Shown here in pieces: positions 1,826-34,082 of a stretch of DNA of 40,772 nt (the stretch's first letter is position 1; each line of letters begins with the position of its first letter). The notes beneath the pieces are model-generated. The model ran no database searches. It was not told the origin of the DNA and saw only the letters and a list, made by a program, of their open reading frames with translations. The DNA is from a virus (Duplodnaviria > Heunggongvirae > Uroviricota > Caudoviricetes). The DNA lies in IMG/VR virus record IMGVR_UViG_3300028456_000002, positions 1 to 40,772 of that record, one strand, 5' to 3'. Made by a program: the position numbers and the translations under genes.

Positions 1826-5226
<3,401 letters not shown>

Positions 5227-22734: not shown

Positions 22735-22809
<75 letters not shown>

Positions 22810-22812
22810 ATA

Positions 22813-22888
<76 letters not shown>

Positions 22889-24653: not shown

Positions 24654-24682
24654 AATATATGCTTTTTAATCTACTTTTGCAA
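24654..24682 (-). promoter_or_regulatory. pR'-like late promoter overlapping the Q stop codon
   Basis: Minus strand TTGCAA, 17 nt spacer, TATATT; a short transcript would end at the terminator at 24577..24600, the lambda pR'-qut-tR' layout. Confidence 0.55.
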
Positions 24683-25361
24683 TACTTTGCTTTGAAAATG
24701 CCGCCTTTTGTTCCGAACGCGTTCTCATTACCAACAATAAAGCCTCACTATCCAGCTGATGGAAAATGTGTTTCATTGCAACCCAGTGACCAGTAAATGT
24801 TTTGGACCAGTTTTTAGTTGTCACTCCCGCCAGTAATGCCAGATCCTGGTATTCATAACCTTCCCCGCCAAAAAGTTCTGCTTTTACTGCCTGCGCCGCC
24901 AGCCAGATTAATTTTTTCAGGCGTTCCCGTGTTTTCTCTGCAATTTTCCTGTTGCCAGAATGAGCCTTAAACTCTTCCCATGCCCAGCGGGTTATGGTGA
25001 CCTGATACTCCCAGCAAATATTTCCGCTGTAACACCACAACAACCAGGTTTTATGAGGTTCTTCAAGAGACAGAACAGCCCGTCGCCATGAGGATGTCGA
25101 AAACTCAACCTGACTTACCAGAGGAATTGACGTCCCCTTCGCCAGCGATTGTTTCCCCGGGATTGGTGGATTATCCCGCGTGATAATTTTTCCAGTCGCT
25201 TCATCGCGGTACCGGATTTTTTTACGCCTGTAACGCCCTGTATCGAACATGGCATTCTCCTGCCAGGCTTCAAGCTGACCTTTTGTTGCCCCACTCAAAT
25301 CGGCGGTGGCGATAATGAGCTGCTCACGAACAAACTGTAAATACTGGTTATTCATGCGCAC
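24666..25361 (-). CDS. Late gene antiterminator Q-like protein
   Basis: 231 aa ORF directly upstream of the pR'/tR'-like elements and downstream of rusA; assignment is positional, family not verified. Confidence 0.6.
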   Translation of the reverse strand: MRMNNQYLQFVREQLIIATADLSGATKGQLEAWQENAMFDTGRYRRKKIRYRDEATGKIITRDNPPIPGKQSLAKGTSIPLVSQVEFSTSSWRRAVLSLEEPHKTWLLWCYSGNICWEYQVTITRWAWEEFKAHSGNRKIAEKTRERLKKLIWLAAQAVKAELFGGEGYEYQDLALLAGVTTKNWSKTFTGHWVAMKHIFHQLDSEALLLVMRTRSEQKAAFSKQSIAKVD

Positions 25362-27763: not shown

Positions 27764-27919
27764 TTACTCCTCAGATTCGTAAGCTGTGAAGACAGCGACC
27801 TCCGTCTGGCCGGTTCGGATTCGTACCTCGCAGAGGTCTTTCCTCGTTACCAGTGCCGTCACTATGACGGTTAAACAGATGACGATCAGGGCGATTAACA
27901 TCGCCTTTTGCTGCTTCAT
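27764..27919 (-). CDS. hok: Hok/Gef family type I toxin (HokD-like), inside an N-terminally extended mok frame 27764..27976
   Basis: MKQQKAMLIALIVICLTVIVTALVTRKDLCEVRIRTGQTEVAVFTAYESEE, 51 aa, single TM helix, near-identical to chromosomal Hok proteins; the 70-aa in-frame upstream extension corresponds to mok. Confidence 0.85.
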   Translation of the reverse strand: MKQQKAMLIALIVICLTVIVTALVTRKDLCEVRIRTGQTEVAVFTAYESEE

Positions 27920-28199
27920 AGCCTGCTTCTCCTTGCCTTTCGGCATGTAAGAGGCTAACCTACATGTGCAAAGCATGAAATTGGCCTCAGATTAATGTTA
28001 AGCGTCTTGCCGGACGCGTAATGTTAACTGGGGCTTTTCTCTATCTGCCGTTGGTGTTCATGCCTGAGACAGATAGCCTCAAGCACCCGCAGCAATTCTA
28101 CTTAACTATCCTTTTCCCGCAAATCGTTTTTATCCCCAGCGGCAAATCGAATACACCACCAGCGCCACTGCCATCGCGATTCCTACTGTTGTGAATGCC

Positions 28200-28757: not shown

Positions 28758-29122
28758 TATTTATCTCCCTTAAGCATGGCGGCGCGGCAGGCGTTCCAGC
28801 CATCAGCATATGTTTCAGTTACACCGTCGAGATGGCAGGTAAGCAAATCCATTTCATCAGGCACTACCAGCGCTGGCGGGACAGCATAAAGCTCATGCAT
28901 TCCATCAGGCAGCGAGTGACCTACATACTCACCGAACCCGTCAACACACATGCACCCATCCTCAATAATGCATGACGCCACTGGCTCTGCTTCCAGCGAT
29001 GCCAGTGCAATCCGTGCCAGTTCTTCCGCTTCTTCTGCTGGCAGTACAACGTTGCTACCCGGTCCGTATGTTTCGCGCCACTGCTTGATTGTCAGCAGTC
29101 GCTCTTTGGTAATAGTGGTCAT
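28757..29122 (-). CDS. Hypothetical protein, 121 aa
   Basis: ORF with start overlapping the HNH gene stop; Cys-rich central segment (CIIEDGCMCVDGFGEY). Confidence 0.5.
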   Translation of the reverse strand: MTTITKERLLTIKQWRETYGPGSNVVLPAEEAEELARIALASLEAEPVASCIIEDGCMCVDGFGEYVGHSLPDGMHELYAVPPALVVPDEMDLLTCHLDGVTETYADGWNACRAAMLKGDK

Positions 29123-29484
29123 GCCGTAGCCCCTTCTTGATATTTTTCAAACCAGAACACAACCGGGTCAGATTTCATTTCAACCAACCCCATACGAACC
29201 AGCGCTTTGCCTTTCCCGGACGCAAGGAATTCACGACGACCATCACTGATAATTCGCCGATAATCTTCCAGGCTACTGCAATGCTTGTGCAGATTGCATG
29301 GGTGGCATGCCGGAACCATGTTGGATATATCGTCACGTTCCTGGTGAAGCATATTTCCAGCAAAACGAATGACCGGTTTTACATGGTCTACATGCCACTT
29401 TTCGCCAAGTTCGCAACCACAATAAGCACAGCGACCGCCGAACTTCATGCGCAGCTCTGCACGTTGTTTTTTCGTCAGTGCCAT
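29119..29484 (-). CDS. HNH endonuclease
   Basis: Start taken at MALTKKQRAELRMKFGGRCAYCGCEL...WHVDHVKPV...VPACHPCNLHK; classic HNH Cys/His motifs. Track ORF extends to 29574. Confidence 0.8.
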   Translation of the reverse strand: MALTKKQRAELRMKFGGRCAYCGCELGEKWHVDHVKPVIRFAGNMLHQERDDISNMVPACHPCNLHKHCSSLEDYRRIISDGRREFLASGKGKALVRMGLVEMKSDPVVFWFEKYQEGATA

Positions 29485-29485
29485 T

Positions 29486-29725
29486 TCAGTTTTCCTTATA
29501 TGGATTAATTTTATTGTGCAGTGTATTGAACGACGCCCATACCACGTCGTTATACAATTCAATAACTGGCTCAATTATTTTCCCGATTGCCCAGACAAAA
29601 ATTAGCGGGGATATCGGTGTCATCAACACGATAAACAGAATGAGAAACAAAAATTCTGTCGCTCTACTTTTTCGCGGATATTCTTTTCTGAATAATGTAG
29701 GCACATCACTCTCCTTTGTTGCCAA
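29486..29725 (-). CDS. Small membrane protein, 79 aa
   Basis: Hydrophobic segments FLFLILFIVLMTPISPLIFVWAIGKII. Confidence 0.45.
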   Translation of the reverse strand: MATKESDVPTLFRKEYPRKSRATEFLFLILFIVLMTPISPLIFVWAIGKIIEPVIELYNDVVWASFNTLHNKINPYKEN

Positions 29726-30065
29726 TGTTTACAGCCTGGCAAGCCTCTTTGAGCACCCAGTCAACAGCGTCTTTCCATGCTCCGGTTTCAGCTGGCGGAT
29801 TCTCACACTTTACCTGTTCATAGAAGCGCACTGCTTTAATCAATCCTTCTGGTGTCAGTGGCACAGGCGGGGCAGTGAATAACGCCTGAATTTCATAGCT
29901 CGGCCTGTCGTTGCAATCCTCTTTTGTCGGTACATATTTCCAGTCACCAACCCACGGCTCCCCCTGAGAGTCCGTAACGCCTTTTTTCACGTAGCGATAT
30001 CGCCATGCAACTGGTTTTGCCTGCCCTGCCGTTTCATGTCCTTCCTGATAATTAATCTCGCTCAT
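29706..30065 (-). CDS. Hypothetical protein, 119 aa
   Basis: ORF MSEINYQEGHETAGQAKPVAWRYRYVKK...; start overlaps the stop of a small upstream ORF. Confidence 0.5.
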   Translation of the reverse strand: MSEINYQEGHETAGQAKPVAWRYRYVKKGVTDSQGEPWVGDWKYVPTKEDCNDRPSYEIQALFTAPPVPLTPEGLIKAVRFYEQVKCENPPAETGAWKDAVDWVLKEACQAVNIGNKGE

Positions 30066-30413: not shown

Positions 30414-30508
30414 TTCACTACCGCCCTTTCGGGCGGCCTCCTGATGTTCTGAGGGTGCAGGAATCCCTCCGGTTAAGGATTAAATTGTATTTACAGCGCT
30501 AAATTTAT

Positions 30509-30907
30509 TTATTCCGTTCTGGATTTTGTCGCCCTGCGTATCCGCGCTTTCGCGTTACGCTCAATCTGAATTAACTTTTCTATATTTTTCCGCCTTTCCT
30601 GTTCCTCCTGGCGCAATAGCCTTACATCATCTGCCAGTCTGGTTTCTCTTTTCGCCACTGAGAGCATCCAGTCAAACGGCTCCACAACTGCACCGCAGAT
30701 TTTACAGCGGACCTGACGCTCTTTTTCGTCAACCCGGACAGAAGCGTGATGACAGTATGGTCTTTCCGATGGCTCATAAAGAAAATTAACCTGATTACGT
30801 GGGTCATCCTCTTTTACCGGAAATAAAACAATATTACTTAACTCATCTTCTGGATTTATTTCCACGTCACTCTCCTTTGATGCGAATGCCAGCGACGCGT
30901 GGCACAT
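30509..30907 (-). CDS. Hypothetical Cys-rich (zinc-ribbon-like) protein
   Basis: ORF 30509..30946; contains CHH and CKICG motifs and a basic coiled C-terminus; start uncertain because the 5' end overlaps the upstream gene. Confidence 0.45.
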   Translation of the reverse strand: MCHASLAFASKESDVEINPEDELSNIVLFPVKEDDPRNQVNFLYEPSERPYCHHASVRVDEKERQVRCKICGAVVEPFDWMLSVAKRETRLADDVRLLRQEEQERRKNIEKLIQIERNAKARIRRATKSRTE

Positions 30908-31322
30908 TAACTTCCACAATGCGCACAGTTGGTTTGTACATCTCAATTGCTGTCAGCCAGTCAGCGCCAGTCATGCGCTTTTCTGCATCACCATTAGTCC
31001 ACTTAACCGGCACACCAATAGCCTTCATCGCGATTTCTATTTCCCCGGCAATGGCGCTTTTTCCGCAACCAGTAAAACCAGATACAACGACAAGAACTTC
31101 GCCTTTGGCTGGTTTTATTTCCCGTGCTTCCAGCTCTGCAATGCGCTTTTTGGCTGCTTCCCGTTCATCCAGTAGTGCCAGCACAACCTGCGGTGTGACC
31201 TTCATACGAAACGCAAGCAATTTTTGCGGTGTTGCCACGACTTTTATTGCTTCTGCTGCCTCACGCAGTGCCTGATAGTCAATCTTGCTCACTGGTTGCC
31301 TCCTGGCAAAGCTGGGCGACAA
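30867..31322 (-). CDS. Small P-loop protein, 151 aa
   Basis: Contains GFTGCGKS, a Walker A-like motif. Confidence 0.5.
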
Positions 31323-32031
31323 TATCGCGATATTTATTCAGCTCCCGCAGCGCGGCACAGACTCGCTCCCATTTCCGGATATCACTTTTCGCCCGACGCA
31401 GTTCGCGGTTTGCCTGTCGCAGCGATGGCAGAACCAGATTATCCACTCGCTTCTCAAGCGGCTGCACAATGGCCGCCACAGTTTCTGTTTTAATATCTTC
31501 CTGTGTTGCAGCCTCCTGTACTGGTAACGCAACACCTGCGGGCTGAGGAAAGGCCTTACCAGCCGTTTTCGTTACCGGTGCAGCATTCGGCTCAGCTGGT
31601 AAATTATCGCCCGGCATGCAGTAACGAAATTTACCGTTCTTATTAACGCGTGCCAGCCGCCCCGTTGCGGTTACTACCGCCAGCGTGGAGGCAACCTTAC
31701 GAGTGCTAACACCGAACTTACCCGCCAGTTCCTCACACGTTTTAGCCCCCTCCTGACCGATACACTCAATCATCATGTCAGCGGTAACTTTTTGTTCGGC
31801 CTCCCCGGCCGGCACATCCGGTGCTTCAGATTGTGCTGGCTGCTCTTCGGTTACCCCGGATTTACCTTCGCCAGCCAGAAACCAGGTGTGACCAGTTTTA
31901 TCAACGACGCCATTTCTTTTGAGTTCCCACAGCTCGTTCAGCACTTCTTCACGACTGATATCAAGTCGCGCAGCCAGCTCTACCGACGTGGCTTTTCCCA
32001 TCGCTTTCAGTGCGTCAAAAACAGTCTCCAT
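31279..32031 (-). CDS. Hypothetical protein with N-terminal winged-helix-like segment and Ala/Pro-rich linker
   Basis: 250 aa [47 protein letters not shown]...; common lambdoid early-region protein. Confidence 0.55.
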
Positions 32032-32064: not shown

Positions 32065-32730
32065 TCAAACAAAACCAGCCGCTTTCCGGCGTTCATATTC
32101 CTGTTTCAGCAACTCAATTGGCGTTGGCCCCGACGGGCGTTTGGGGGCCGCCAGTTGTCGCCGGACTGGCGGAACGCTCAGGCCGTTACTAACATGCTTT
32201 GCCCATTTCGTCAGTTGCCGTTCTGCAAGCCGTTTTAATTCCCCTTCGGTCATCTGGCGCTCAATCCCCTTTGAACGCATCTCGAGGCAAATGTGATACA
32301 GCACAGGCTGAGACCACGGGTACCTATCACTTCCGTCGTATCGCCAGGACTCATTGCGCCAGCGGCGGTACTCCTCCATCACAGCATCCACCGTCAGACC
32401 GAATGGATTGGCTCCGCTTTCCGAAATCAGTGCCACAAACTCAGCCAGGTCCGGAGGCCATGTTTCACCCGCCCGGCAGCGGTCCATGCACTGGCGGCAG
32501 ACCTGCCGGATTTGCTGCTCAGTCATCGCGCCAATCTGTGCAATCCAGAGCTTCGAAGGTGCGGCCCCGTTCTTCTGGGTCCAGCGGTTCGAATAAACCT
32601 CCCCCATGAGTTCCCACAGCTTCCAGGCCGTTTCCGTCGCTGATAAATCCGTTTTCACGTTCCCACTGCTCACGTGCTGCCCGAATTTCCTGAACTGCCC
32701 GTGATGCGGTGCCACCTGGTGCTGCTGCAT
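32065..32730 (-). CDS. Replication protein P-like (helicase loader)
   Basis: 221 aa; ...GAMTEQQIRQVCRQCMDRCR... and ...YPWSQPVLYHICLEMR...ELKRLAERQL... align with lambda P from memory. The 5' end overlaps the O-like gene by about 210 nt, so the start is uncertain. Confidence 0.7.
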   Translation of the reverse strand: MQQHQVAPHHGQFRKFGQHVSSGNVKTDLSATETAWKLWELMGEVYSNRWTQKNGAAPSKLWIAQIGAMTEQQIRQVCRQCMDRCRAGETWPPDLAEFVALISESGANPFGLTVDAVMEEYRRWRNESWRYDGSDRYPWSQPVLYHICLEMRSKGIERQMTEGELKRLAERQLTKWAKHVSNGLSVPPVRRQLAAPKRPSGPTPIELLKQEYERRKAAGFV

Positions 32731-33559
32731 GGTTTACCCCTTTGCTGACTGGTTTAACCTGCGCCCTGACGTGATTTACGTGACGGGCGAATTTCTGCTC
32801 CCACTGAATCTGCGTAAACACTTTCCCCTCCGCTGCCCAGTAGTCCCGGAAGGCGGCAAGTTCAGCAGGTGTAAATTCTGTCTCCGGCAAAGCCATCCCC
32901 CACAACGCAGCCCGTCGTCGAAAATCCCGTGACGGATACCAGCTATCGCTCATCGGGAATTTTCCGATGGGTTCGCTCAGGCCATCCAGGAATACAGGGG
33001 GGGCTGCCTGTAACGACAAAACCTCCTGCTCACTGGTCGGAGCACTCTCGCGTGCGTTATGTGTGGGGTTTAGATCTTTGGGTTCCTTTGGGTTCCGTGA
33101 TCCGTTTTTGGGTGTCTTTGATGGAAAATTTGGGTGTCTTTGGTTATTTTCCATGCAGCTAAGAGTTCCGTTTTTGGGTCTGTTTTGTGCTGAAACATAA
33201 CCATTTTCGGTACTGTTTTTATTAACAGCACCAATTTTACCCACCTTTAAAGACTCCCGTTTTTGGGTGTATTCAGGCTCGGCAACACTTTCTTCTACAC
33301 CGATAAGTCGGTACACCACAATTTGCTTTGTTTTGCCTTTTCTCTCACCGGTATCAACAATTAACCCAATCTCCATCAGGTGTCGTAAGCTGTCCTGCAC
33401 AGTCTTTTTGTTCAGTTCCGTTACTTCTGCCAGTGCAGATACAGACGGGTATGCACACAAATCGGCACCGCACATATCAGCAAGCCAGGTCAATACAGAC
33501 TTACTGGATGAACTGCCGGTTTTCACCTTTTTAGCCCATCGTAGTGCATCGATACTCAT
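32519..33559 (-). CDS. Replication initiator (O-position) with N-terminal HTH and C-terminal DnaT-like region
   Basis: ORF 32519..33634; likely start MSIDALRWAKK...; central low-complexity PKNG-rich linker encoded by the iteron repeats. Confidence 0.7.
   Translation of the reverse strand: MSIDALRWAKKVKTGSSSSKSVLTWLADMCGADLCAYPSVSALAEVTELNKKTVQDSLRHLMEIGLIVDTGERKGKTKQIVVYRLIGVEESVAEPEYTQKRESLKVGKIGAVNKNSTENGYVSAQNRPKNGTLSCMENNQRHPNFPSKTPKNGSRNPKEPKDLNPTHNARESAPTSEQEVLSLQAAPPVFLDGLSEPIGKFPMSDSWYPSRDFRRRAALWGMALPETEFTPAELAAFRDYWAAEGKVFTQIQWEQKFARHVNHVRAQVKPVSKGVNHAAAPGGTASRAVQEIRAAREQWERENGFISDGNGLEAVGTHGGGLFEPLDPEERGRTFEALDCTDWRDD
33072..33272. promoter_or_regulatory. Candidate origin of replication: iteron-like repeats inside the O-like gene
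   Basis: At least five copies of (C)CGTTTTTGGGTGTCTTT-like units (33099, 33125, 33166, 33255, plus TTTGGGTTCC doublet at 33072) followed by an AT-rich stretch; lambda ori has the same in-gene layout. Confidence 0.55.
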
Positions 33560-34082
33560 ACGAACCCCTGGCAGACATTTGTTTATCTGCAAAGTAATAT
33601 TGATATTGCTGACGATACGCATGCTTGAAAGCAATAGCTTTTTCTATAAGCTCGTCAGTCTCACGTTCCACAACAGATGGATCCGCAAAAAGCAGCCCAG
33701 ACTCCACCACATCGCCATATTCTTTGTTTAATCCGGCGATCATGTACGTAATGCTTTTTCCATCACTGATCTCACGATACAACCTGAAATCACTAATTCG
33801 GATAGCCTCCATAATTGCCGGAATCAGCGCCGTGAATTTTTTCCGCTTATCCCTGGTGTCGATAGCTTTCCAGCGTTCGAATATCTTCACCCGGTTAACG
33901 CCCAGCGCCCGTTGATCAACCTCGCCATCATTAAACGTGACGCGTTGAACATCGATGTTCGGGCGTTCTTTCAGAGCCCAGAATGCTTCCGTGATTAATA
34001 TCGTCGCCTGCTCCTGTGTCATTCCTGGTCGGCACACCCAGGCATCCAGAGCCTCACAAACCTGTTCAGGGGTGATTTTCAT
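33531..34082 (-). CDS. YdaT-like protein (cII-position gene)
   Basis: 183 aa immediately downstream of the Cro-like gene; resemblance to Rac YdaT is from memory only. Confidence 0.5.
   Translation of the reverse strand: MKITPEQVCEALDAWVCRPGMTQEQATILITEAFWALKERPNIDVQRVTFNDGEVDQRALGVNRVKIFERWKAIDTRDKRKKFTALIPAIMEAIRISDFRLYREISDGKSITYMIAGLNKEYGDVVESGLLFADPSVVERETDELIEKAIAFKHAYRQQYQYYFADKQMSARGSYEYRCTTMG

Follow-up and report, generated by a model that had tools for sequence, protein, structure and literature searches.

The two genes at positions 30,509 to 31,322 of the window (the whole 40,772-nt stretch of viral DNA analyzed here, IMG/VR record IMGVR_UViG_3300028456_000002) are best explained as adjacent, non-overlapping accessory genes of a lambdoid prophage. 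One is an Ea22-like gene whose product carries a mini P-loop cargo, and the other encodes a zinc ribbon protein. The two appear to be co-transcribed, are probably translationally coupled, and would abut through cassette mosaicism. We assign this reading a probability of roughly 75%. It is built on the identities of the genes, their start codons, the domain boundaries, the fusion and insertion relationship between the two coding sequences, the lack of obligate pairing, and the signature of purifying selection, all of which are established below. What looked like an overlapping NTPase/zinc-finger gene pair is thereby explained by the cassette mosaicism that is ordinary among lambdoid prophages, and the sole unusual element of the two genes is the mini P-loop module.

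Gene starts and spacing

The ORF list of the window contains two minus-strand frames in this region, 30867..31322 (151 aa) and 30509..30946 (145 aa), and each begins at its most upstream TTG. The initial annotation described them as two proteins whose genes overlap by 40-80 nt. Both lengths and the overlap result from taking the longest ORF in each case. We found that a GTG at 31292 is the most likely start of the first gene (gene 1, ead/Ea22-like), which then occupies 30867..31292 on the minus strand, ends with a TGA stop codon (30867-30869), and encodes a predicted protein of 141 aa. A Shine-Dalgarno sequence, AGGAGG (31299..31304, minus strand), can be read 6 nt upstream of this GTG. Starting here produces a 14-nt overlap with the preceding DUF1627 gene, which is how RefSeq annotates the closely related locus L002, and yields an N-terminus that aligns with lambda Ea22, a protein that is likewise GTG-started. 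The Pfam family match (PF13935), the RefSeq annotation of near-identical loci, and a check of the translation agree with this gene model.

The second gene (gene 2, zinc ribbon plus long helix) most likely starts at GTG 30865, so that it spans 30509..30865 on the minus strand and would encode 118 aa. An AAGGAG lies 6 nt 5' of this GTG, within the last codons of the Ea22-like gene. The same 357-nt coding sequence is annotated by RefSeq in L001 and L002 with the product name "hypothetical protein". Homologs begin with MEIKPEDE or MTTETE at the position matching GTG 30865, and the sequence 5' of this point is wholly different from locus to locus. The longer starts (TTG 31322 for gene 1; TTG 30946 or ATG 30907 for gene 2) were rejected on the basis of Shine-Dalgarno position, RefSeq annotation, homolog N-termini, and the unconserved upstream sequence. 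With these starts, a single nucleotide separates the TGA of gene 1 (30867-30869) from the GTG of gene 2 (30863-30865), and the genes therefore do not overlap. The reported overlap is an artifact of ORF calling, and RefSeq shows the identical arrangement with its 1-nt spacer. The additional Cys and His residues of the 145-aa ORF come from the Ea22 tail read out of frame; the 118-aa protein has three Cys and two His.

An Ea22-like protein with a mini P-loop cargo

The gene 1 product matches the Pfam family PF13935 (Ead_Ea22) with an E-value of 2.4e-11 and 44.8 bits against a cut-off of 27, and by sequence it is a member of the Ead/Ea22 family. In Ea22 proteins, an N-terminal segment is followed by a coiled coil and then by a C-terminal domain that varies, and the genes are mosaic (PMC10834534, PMC7093339, PMC8614690). 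The Pfam match in our protein falls on aa 1-61 (31110..31292, minus strand), which comprise the Ea22 head and a short helical stalk of coiled-coil type with a linker at its end; AF2 predicts helices at 6-18, 22-31, and 34-57. This head and stalk are joined to another cargo in the protein P0123. At the other end of gene 1, the conserved Ea22 tail AGIRIKGE and the stop codon (30867..30893, minus strand) are encoded by 27 nt identical to the end of lambda ea22, and this segment holds the AAGGAG of the next gene (30872-30877). At other loci the same tail ends unrelated cargo domains located 5' of the zinc ribbon gene. A C-terminal "+GE" motif of Ea22 proteins was described in PMC7093339. Reported as unexplained, this motif falls here on two features at once, the Shine-Dalgarno sequence of gene 2 and a conserved recombination junction.

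These features bear on the suggestion that a small NTPase lies outside the standard lambda early gene set. Gene 1 belongs to PF13935 and shares its head and its terminal 27 nt with lambda ea22, which is a lambda early gene, and the Walker-type motif is confined to a C-terminal cargo of about 70 residues. Gene 1 is under strong purifying selection (pN/pS 0.074). We assume, by analogy, that its stalk oligomerizes; this is an assumption because the stalk is much shorter here (about 25 residues) than in lambda. A tetrameric coiled coil and a pro-lysogenic phenotype have been established for the lambda and Stx-phage Ea22 proteins alone (PMC10834534, PMC7093339). The Ea22 proteins on which the pro-lysogenic role was measured have different cargo domains and are products of the pL exo-xis region, and the role may not transfer to the gene 1 product.

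The cargo itself occupies aa 64-132 (30897..31103, minus strand), ends with RIVEVNVPR, and has a predicted beta-alpha-beta-alpha-beta order. It carries the Walker A-type motif GFTGCGKS at aa 72-79 (31056..31079, minus strand), which the AF2 prediction places between a strand (65-72) and a helix (78-91). When the whole window is translated in all six frames (81,540 codons), the pattern G-x4-G-K-[ST] occurs only four times, and it arises in 0.45% of shuffles of the gene 1 protein. Conservation of the motif is high: it is kept in 139 of 147 domain hits, and within the module family GxTGxGKS is invariant, with a hydrophobic strand before it and a helix after it. The initial annotation was thus right about a Walker A-type motif, and the 151-aa length it gave to the protein is likely to be 141 aa. 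The glutamate of RIVE (E127) is an invariant acidic residue at the end of the predicted third strand and is a candidate Walker B residue.

An exhaustive search recovered the module in 441 protein clusters, and the match always covers about 70-75 residues. Among the 140 proteins listed, 123 have it at the C-terminus, 11 at the N-terminus, and 6 at an internal position, and in Mesorhizobium it stands alone as an 87-aa ORF. Twenty-eight positions are invariant across alpha-, beta-, and gamma-proteobacterial members that share 47-65% identity. The module has no Pfam entry, and a Pfam scan of the longer proteins that bear it gave no partner-domain match apart from Ead_Ea22. These observations indicate that the mini P-loop module is an undescribed domain that is widespread (E. 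coli, alpha- and beta-proteobacteria) and, judging by its sequence conservation, strongly constrained.

We compared the module with known NTPases. Weak APS_kinase and AAA_16 matches were obtained from 25 of 26 module members, and the P-loop kinase matches of the gene 1 protein in NCBIfam were all sub-threshold. A PDB profile search returned weak matches on the Walker A region of UvrA, of gluconate, APS, and shikimate kinases, of ArsA, and of designed P-loop proteins, and cpFtsY was matched at E=7e-4. Every match to an NTPase family fell below the family threshold and was limited to about 45 residues, and none was significant by profile or fold. A Foldseek search of PDB and BFVD with the domain model gave nothing significant. 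PDB sequence and profile searches found no homologous solved structure for either the gene 1 or the gene 2 protein, returning weak P-loop and zinc ribbon matches only. The domain-only AF2 model of the module is confident, yet DSSP assigns no strands in it, and for this reason its fold assignment is soft. A complete P-loop core has at least five strands and some 150 residues or more and is absent from the module, which has about 70 residues, three predicted strands, and boundaries that are constant in 441 clusters. Its sequence resembles just the first beta-loop-alpha-beta of SIMIBI-type P-loop NTPases. Given its small size and its weak similarity to all NTPase families, the module cannot be labeled an NTPase.

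The zinc ribbon gene

The gene 2 protein matches phrog_1621 (PHROG-1621) at 2e-55 and has 150 homologs. The zinc knuckles C38-H-H40 ... C54-K-I-C57 are encoded at 30695..30754 (minus strand). The ligands C38, H40, C54, and C57 (CxH...CxxC) are invariant in 45 homologs at 45-96% identity, which upholds the zinc-ribbon-type motif of the initial annotation. The Zn_Ribbon_TF match on these knuckles is weak (21.6 bits against a cut-off of 29) and is seen in 21 of 45 family members. The best-conserved stretch of the family alignment is the C-terminal helix region (30530..30658, minus strand; ...LRQEEQERRKNIEKLIQIERNAKARIRRA). The protein is predicted to consist of a zinc ribbon followed by a long, partly basic helix. 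No NCBIfam family matched the gene 2 protein. The gene is under strong purifying selection (pN/pS 0.049) and is a common accessory gene of lambda-like prophages. The two proteins of the region therefore differ in how well their families are known, since gene 1 belongs to a partly characterized family and gene 2 to an uncharacterized PHROG; assignment of both to well-characterized, unrelated families holds only by half.

Probable cassette mosaicism and in-frame fusions

Sibling prophages reveal how the two genes came to lie side by side. In three of their proteins (P0123, P0126, and P0160), the Ea22 stalk is fused in frame to the PHROG-1621 zinc ribbon. The fusion locus L178 has the same neighboring genes as the window, and its junction corresponds to the exact loss of the block between two 14-nt repeats. 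Fusions of this type lack the P-loop module and join the zinc ribbon to the Ea22 stalk. In the window, the upstream copy of this linker repeat (family D2) lies at 31109..31122, reads GGAAATAAAACCAG on the minus strand, and encodes EIKP; it is the junction of the L178 fusion gene. The downstream copy lies at 30850..30863, reads GGAAATAAATCCAG on the minus strand, and encodes EINP at the start of the zinc ribbon gene. A repeat search of the window showed that the copies are identical at 13 of 14 positions and are spaced 259 nt apart. A 13/14 repeat within 1 kb could arise by chance, and the meaning of the repeat rests on the fusion junctions.

Within the 259-nt block lie the P-loop module, the tail with its embedded Shine-Dalgarno sequence, a stop codon, and a new start codon (GTG). 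Where the block is present, a stalk/zinc ribbon fusion is split into two genes. Thus, the cargo slot of an Ea22-like gene took up a 259-nt cassette, and the former zinc ribbon cargo was split off as a gene of its own. The Ea22-like and zinc ribbon genes abut because of this cassette mosaicism.

Genomic context and pairing

Both genes are located in the minus-strand rightward (pR) operon, between a P-like replication gene and the nin/Q region. The P-like gene (32065-32730) is followed by a DUF1627/winged-helix gene (31279..32031, minus strand; PF07789 at 8.8e-84), the last 14 nt of which overlap the beginning of the Ea22-like gene as in L002, and then by the Ea22-like gene; Q lies further on at 24666-25361. 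The genes are thus in the pR operon and not in the exo-xis region as in lambda, although Pfam does not use gene location to define the Ead/Ea22 family. A promoter and terminator scan found no promoter and no convincing terminator between the two genes, and an Rfam scan found nothing at 30509-31322. PADLOC gave nothing meaningful, and known defense systems were not matched.

We asked how often the two elements occur together. Among 5426 complete E. coli genomes, the module is present in 364 and the zinc ribbon gene in 1679, and the junction between them is found in 76, or about 21% of the E. coli genomes with the module and about 4.5% of those with the zinc ribbon gene. In IMG/VR loci, the pairing was seen in 3/79 and 6/79; the neighbors vary, with over 25 kinds of gene on the downstream side and several kinds on the upstream side. 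Another Cys-pair motif is present in only 14 of the 140 listed module proteins. These results show that adjacency of the module and the zinc ribbon gene is a minority arrangement, and the NTPase/zinc-finger pair proposed by the initial annotation is not a conserved pair.

Alternative explanations

The occurrence counts bear on the idea of a dedicated two-component system in which a small NTPase acts with a zinc-finger partner. The genes are adjacent, their 1-nt spacing suggests translational coupling, and the junction is kept in 76 E. coli genomes; some beta-proteobacterial proteins even combine the module and CxxC motifs on one chain, and the fusion of the zinc ribbon to the Ea22 stalk elsewhere might be taken as a "Rosetta stone" link. 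The fusions, however, tie the zinc ribbon to the stalk and are missing the P-loop module. Together with the small share of genomes and IMG/VR loci that have the junction, the varied neighbors, the scarcity of other Cys-pair motifs (14/140), and the lack of PADLOC hits, this makes a dedicated system decidedly unlikely. A still closer connection would exist if a programmed +1 frameshift in the Ea22 tail generated an Ea22/P-loop/zinc ribbon fusion protein, in which case the extended 145-aa ORF would be meaningful. For 27 codons 5' of GTG 30865 the zinc ribbon frame is indeed open, and relative to the Ea22 tail it is the +1 frame. An open run of this length, however, has a chance expectation of about one in four, the extension is unconserved where the upstream neighbor differs, no slippery or shifty site was noted, and the zinc ribbon gene has a good Shine-Dalgarno sequence and start codon for independent initiation. 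We regard such a frameshift as extremely improbable.

Two further explanations concern the cargo. The Walker A segment could be a degenerate relic, without function, of a full-length kinase or NTPase gene joined to an Ea22 gene, given that the module covers no more than the first elements of a P-loop core, matched no NTPase family above threshold, and lies in a highly mosaic region. Decay is difficult to reconcile with the sharp, constant domain boundaries in 441 clusters, the 28 invariant positions at 47-65% identity across three proteobacterial classes, the pN/pS of 0.074, and the occurrence of stand-alone ORFs, and the best 150 representatives include no longer "parent" protein; we consider this explanation very unlikely. 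The cargo may instead be a counter-defense or host-takeover effector, acting as an oligomeric nucleotide "sponge" that takes signaling nucleotides out of circulation, or imitating the N-terminal half of a SIMIBI NTPase of the host (FtsY, MinD, or ArsA type) and so poisoning its dimerization. A small protein that is displayed on an oligomeric stalk, expressed early, and subject to fast cassette shuffling would be typical of phage accessory and anti-defense loci, SIMIBI NTPases are the closest weak matches, and the invariance of the helix 1 surface (GEIEI) goes beyond the needs of the fold. This proposal is speculative: the cargo has no homology to any known sponge or anti-defense protein and no conserved association with a defense or target gene, and PADLOC was negative. 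It strikes us as unlikely, with somewhat better prospects than the explanations above.

Proposed model and significance

We favor the model of two accessory genes brought together by cassette mosaicism. Both genes would be expressed from the delayed-early rightward operon on one transcript, with translational coupling probable. The gene 1 protein would have a four-part build: a conserved head, a short oligomerizing helical stalk, an interchangeable cargo, and the AGIRIKGE tail. The cargo appears to be a mobile, autonomous module of about 70 residues that is carried at protein ends or alone in alpha-, beta-, and gamma-proteobacterial prophages. The Ea22 stalk may display several copies of this cargo, and the cargo could bind either a host protein or a ligand that carries phosphate, be it a nucleotide or a phosphorylated partner. 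If the Ea22 proteins of lambda and the Stx phages are a guide, the gene 1 protein may be a non-essential modulator of the balance between lysis and lysogeny or of host physiology. The zinc ribbon protein would be another small effector, acting independently, with a host protein or nucleic acid as its binding partner.

A more specific proposal for the cargo is that it represents a minimal P-loop domain that is natural and autonomous and is smaller than any other domain known to have a Walker A motif. Its phosphate or nucleotide site would work only when it is oligomerized by the Ea22 stalk or, for stand-alone forms, as a homo-oligomer. The prophage might use such a site to sense, sequester, or hydrolyze a nucleotide signal, thereby influencing the decision between lysis and lysogeny or countering a nucleotide-based host defense. 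We offer this proposal tentatively, as possible but rather doubtful. If the module does bind nucleotides, it would be of interest both for Ea22 function and for minimal P-loop folds.

Comparison with known systems

We compared gene 1 to the Ea22 proteins of other phages. Lambda Ea22 (NP_040612) shares with it the GTG start, the head sequence, a helical stalk with ...KRIAxLE..., the terminal AGIRIKGE encoded by an identical 27 nt, and a modular organization of head, stalk, and C-terminal domain (PMC10834534). In contrast, lambda Ea22 has about 100 residues before its C-terminal domain, compared with 61 before the cargo here, and its own C-terminal domain has a distinctive dimeric mixed alpha/beta fold unrelated to the window cargo. 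Lambda ea22 is also located in the pL exo-xis region, whereas our gene follows the P-like gene in the pR operon. The Stx-phage Ea22 variants (V1-V3) are likewise encoded by mosaic genes, whose products have a head and stalk in common and C-terminal domains unrelated to one another. An insertion in 933W ea22 turns the former C-terminal domain into a separate downstream gene (the ea22/L0065 split; PMC8614690, PMC10834534). This split is the same kind of relationship as that between the window and the L178 fusion. The mini P-loop cargo and the split-off zinc ribbon of our locus are not among the domains in the papers on 933W and the other Stx phages, and the Ea22 papers examined do not mention Walker, P-loop, or ATP in connection with Ea22.

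The gene 2 protein resembles the TFIIB and S27e zinc ribbons (PF08271, PF01667) in having two knuckles 13 residues apart, with weak matches in 21/45 and 8/45 family members. Its first knuckle is CxH and not CxxC, its scores fall below gathering thresholds, and its ribbon is flanked by an ELSNVVxFP motif on the N-terminal side and by a conserved helix, about 45 residues long, on the C-terminal side. Lambda Ea8.5, a zinc-binding protein, is also a small Cys/His protein encoded 3' of ea22. Homology of the gene 2 protein to Ea8.5 was rejected, with an hhalign probability of 5% and a different Cys spacing.

P-loop NTPases of the SIMIBI and kinase types (dethiobiotin synthetase 3fgn, GPN-loop GTPase 5hci, FtsY 4ak9, and APS kinase PF01583) have at least 170 residues and at least five strands, compared with about 70 residues and three predicted strands for the module. 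The module also lacks base-recognition elements, its matches to these proteins are below curated thresholds, and its invariant GEIEI and EKxxTxADW motifs have no counterpart in them. Closer in size are the designed P-loop prototypes (PDB 6c2u, "phosphate-loop protein"), which have a similar beta-(P-loop)-alpha core and give a weak profile match on that element. These prototypes bind phosphate ligands only as oligomers (bioRxiv 10.1101/2020.07.30.228619; PMC10119929). They are laboratory constructs, whereas the module is a natural, widespread domain, with its P-loop recognized from sequence. If the minimal P-loop reading is true, the module would be the equivalent, in living organisms, of the "P-loop prototypes" that were made in the laboratory and have been proposed as ancestors of NTPases.

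Identity and genomic context of the gene pair

The first gene of the pair (gene 1, 30867-31292 (-), 141 aa) encodes an Ea22-family protein. Its product matches Pfam Ead_Ea22 above threshold (44.8 bits; cut-off 27), and near-identical copies in RefSeq are annotated as "ead/Ea22-like family protein". In Ea22 proteins, a short N-terminal segment precedes a coiled coil, which is followed by a C-terminal domain that varies; full-length Ea22 is tetrameric and has pro-lysogenic effects in lambda and Stx phages (PMC10834534, PMC7093339, PMC8614690). The ea22 genes are strongly mosaic, and that of 933W has been split by an insertion that left the former C-terminal domain as a separate gene (PMC10834534, PMC7093339, PMC8614690). 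Read from GTG 31292, the N-terminus of the gene 1 protein aligns with that of lambda Ea22, whose gene is also annotated with a GTG start, and window 30867-30893 is identical to the last 27 nt of lambda ea22. With head and tail matching, the window protein therefore differs from lambda Ea22 in between. The initial annotation had placed the pair outside the lambda gene set, a claim that the Pfam match and the shared head and tail do not support for gene 1.

The window is a complete lambdoid prophage in inverted orientation. On the (-) strand, a replication gene with a DnaT DNA-binding domain occupies the position of lambda O (32519-33634) and a lambda-P-like gene spans 32065-32730, followed by DUF1627, genes 1 and 2, DUF7167, two small ORFs and an HNH endonuclease gene. 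Further on lie hok/sok, a DUF968 gene, Q (24666-25361), tRNAs, and the lysis and structural genes. The (+) strand carries an HTH repressor-like gene, a large exonuclease gene and an integrase gene. This order places genes 1 and 2 in the rightward delayed-early operon, not in the lambda exo-xis region.

Several other elements were found in these regions. Rfam searches identified a sok antitoxin RNA (27914-28088 (-), 112 bits), part of the hok/sok locus in the nin-like region, and two tRNA genes between Q and the lysis genes (22738-22888 (-)). In front of the DUF7167 gene, a GC-rich hairpin, GCCGCCC-GAAA-GGGCGG (30414-30445 (-)), separates an AGGAGG from the ATG (30413). Such a hairpin could bring this Shine-Dalgarno sequence nearer the ATG or have a role in translational control; the intergenic stretch as a whole has a fold z-score of only -1.7. 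The HNH endonuclease (29119-29574 (-)) begins MALTKKQRAELRMKFGGRCAYCGC and has an N-terminal motif closely like that of an HNH ORF (3800-4210) in the Pandoraea locus L177, where it lies about 0.7 kb downstream of a gene with the P-loop module. This likeness probably reflects a common gene pool of prophage early regions.

Start codons and the apparent overlap

The longest ORFs in the interval, each read from its most upstream TTG, are 30867-31322 (-) (151 aa) and 30509-30946 (-) (145 aa). Gene 1 most likely starts at GTG 31292, six nucleotides downstream of an AGGAGG. From this start, it overlaps the upstream DUF1627 gene by 14 nt, in agreement with the RefSeq annotation of a near-identical E. 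coli locus. Gene 2 (30509-30865 (-), 118 aa) most likely starts at GTG 30865, six nucleotides downstream of an AAGGAG. RefSeq annotates the same 357-nt CDS, homologues start MEIKPEDE or MTTETE exactly at this position, and the DNA upstream of the start is completely different from locus to locus. A single nucleotide separates the gene 1 TGA (30867-30869) from the gene 2 GTG (30863-30865). With these starts, neither the 40-80 nt overlap nor the 151- and 145-aa lengths hold. Reading the Ea22 tail in another frame created the seeming overlap and contributed to the "Cys/His-rich" character. A scan between the genes found no promoter-like or convincing terminator-like site.

A conserved putative zinc-ribbon protein

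The gene 2 protein is a member of phrog_1621 (2e-55), a PHROG without assigned function, and has homologues in about 150 clusters from Enterobacterales. The family conserves the knuckles C38-x-H40 and C54-x2-C57, a PFD(Y/W) turn and a highly conserved helix, LRxEExxRRxNIEKLIQIERNAKARIRR. The gene 2 pN/pS of 0.049 indicates purifying selection. Zinc-ribbon profiles gave weak matches below threshold, and a PDB search found no solved homologue. Kinship with lambda Ea8.5 was rejected by alignment comparison. An N-terminal ELSN(V/I)VxFP (30818-30841, aa 9-16), in which F15 and P16 are invariant across the family at 45-96% identity, may be a short linear binding motif.

The Ea22 cargo, a probable P-loop-like mini-domain

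GFTGCGKS (31056-31079 (-)) lies in the region that distinguishes gene 1 from lambda ea22. We consider it real because the pattern G-x4-G-K-[ST] has only four matches in a six-frame translation of the whole 40.8-kb window and appears in 0.45% of shuffles of the gene 1 protein, all the more since homologues conserve the motif. The motif belongs to a discrete module, residues 64-132. An exhaustive HMMER search of 1.84 billion representatives recovered this module in 441 clusters at E<=1e-3 (350 at E<=1e-10), with a match span always of about 70-75 residues. Among 140 listed proteins of 126-623 residues, it is extreme C-terminal in 123, N-terminal in 11 and internal in 6, and its partner regions contain no Pfam domain except Ead_Ea22. 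Members come from Enterobacterales and from beta- and alpha-proteobacteria, with identities of 47-61%, and include an 87-aa stand-alone ORF in Mesorhizobium. A 26-sequence non-redundant alignment has 28 invariant positions, with the motifs GxTGxGKS, GEIEI on the next helix, EK..T..D and Y.P.V...E.

AlphaFold predicts a strand-loop-helix-strand-helix-strand arrangement for the module. The domain-only AF2 model reached pLDDT 82.6 and pTM 0.70, yet lacked DSSP strands; the full-length model was less confident and had three, and the two are not obviously consistent. P-loop NTPase likeness is consistent but weak, and limited to the first 45-55 residues. The gene 1 protein matched cpFtsY (E=7e-4), 25 of 26 module members had sub-threshold APS_kinase and AAA_16 matches, and a PDB profile search returned UvrA, sugar, APS and shikimate kinases, ArsA and designed P-loop proteins. 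Foldseek with the module model found nothing significant. Both motifs singled out initially, GFTGCGKS and the zinc ribbon, are real, but the label "small NTPase" is not supported. From these sequence comparisons we conclude that the cargo is probably a P-loop-like mini-domain rather than a conventional NTPase. This cargo of about 70 residues, undescribed but widespread, is the one element of modest novelty.

Four large mosaic proteins (P0322, P0334, P0368 and an 894-aa Methyloversatilis ORF), apparently from high-GC proteobacteria, contain, within a single chain, both the module and several CxxC zinc-ribbon or DnaJ-like CxxCxGxG motifs. Such Cys motifs occur in only 14 of the 140 module proteins. 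A 3-kb contig of a MAG labelled Collinsella sp. (actinobacterial) encodes a module with 99% identity to that of E. coli and is probably a mis-binned enterobacterial phage contig.

The two genes are independent

An obligate NTPase/zinc-finger system would account for the adjacency in the window, but we regard it as unlikely. Of 5426 complete E. coli genomes, 364 carry the module (393 places), 1679 the zinc-ribbon gene and 76 the junction between them. Among the 80 best IMG/VR loci per gene, the partner lies next to it in 6/79 and 3/79. The zinc-ribbon gene in these loci is preceded by a DUF977-like gene in 33/79 and by Ea22 genes with other cargoes in at least 25, and more than 25 different genes come next after the P-loop Ea22 gene. 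The low pairing counts and varied neighbours thus link the zinc ribbon to Ea22 genes generally, via common junction sequences, and not specifically to the P-loop module. A frameshift fusion of two genes is scarcely credible beside the conserved gene 2 start. That the cargo is a decayed NTPase remnant would fit its partial likeness; the module is under purifying selection (pN/pS 0.074 in E. coli phage loci), and we consider decay highly improbable. A nucleotide sponge or NTPase mimic is the least improbable of these alternatives, though still doubtful.

We favor independent genes, an ordinary and already annotated lambdoid accessory pair. The stalk might oligomerize as in lambda Ea22 and so display several mini P-loop modules, which would bind a phosphate-bearing ligand or a host protein. 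The gene 1 protein could then modulate lysis/lysogeny or host physiology as a non-essential early factor, and the zinc-ribbon protein may be an independent small effector.

Cassette relationship at the Ea22 cargo slot

The C-terminal "+GE" tripeptide of Ea22 proteins has been termed unexplained (PMC7093339). In the window (30867-30893) its codons are AAA GGA GAG, which include the AAGGAG that serves the next gene as Shine-Dalgarno sequence. The same 27 nt close lambda ea22 (548-574 of the lambda locus L164; lambda 29847-29873), yet no coupled ORF follows there. The AGIRIKGE tail also ends other, unrelated cargo domains upstream of the zinc-ribbon gene, and is therefore marked as a conserved junction. 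It looks like a junction/RBS sequence rather than, or in addition to, a protein motif.

Of the 393 E. coli module places, 81 are on plasmids, and phage matches include 91-100 kb records (D6, JL22). Chromosomal lambdoid prophages are thus not the only carriers of the cargo cassette.

In three database proteins (P0123, P0126, P0160), a zinc ribbon of the gene 2 type follows directly on an Ea22 head and stalk. P0123 is encoded on five contigs, and in one of them (L178) its neighbors are those of the window: DUF1627 upstream, and DUF7167, 58-aa and 119-aa ORFs downstream. In a DNA alignment, removing from the window the block between two 14-nt linker copies, GGAAATAAAACCAG (31109-31122) and GGAAATAAATCCAG (30850-30863), spaced 259 nt apart, yields the fusion. 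The P-loop module, AGIRIKGE tail, stop codon, embedded AAGGAG and GTG all fall within this block. The window arrangement can therefore be read as an Ea22/zinc-ribbon gene whose cargo slot holds a P-loop cassette; just as well, the fusion may derive from this arrangement by deletion. This relation is the same kind of event as that described for 933W ea22 and L0065 (PMC8614690).
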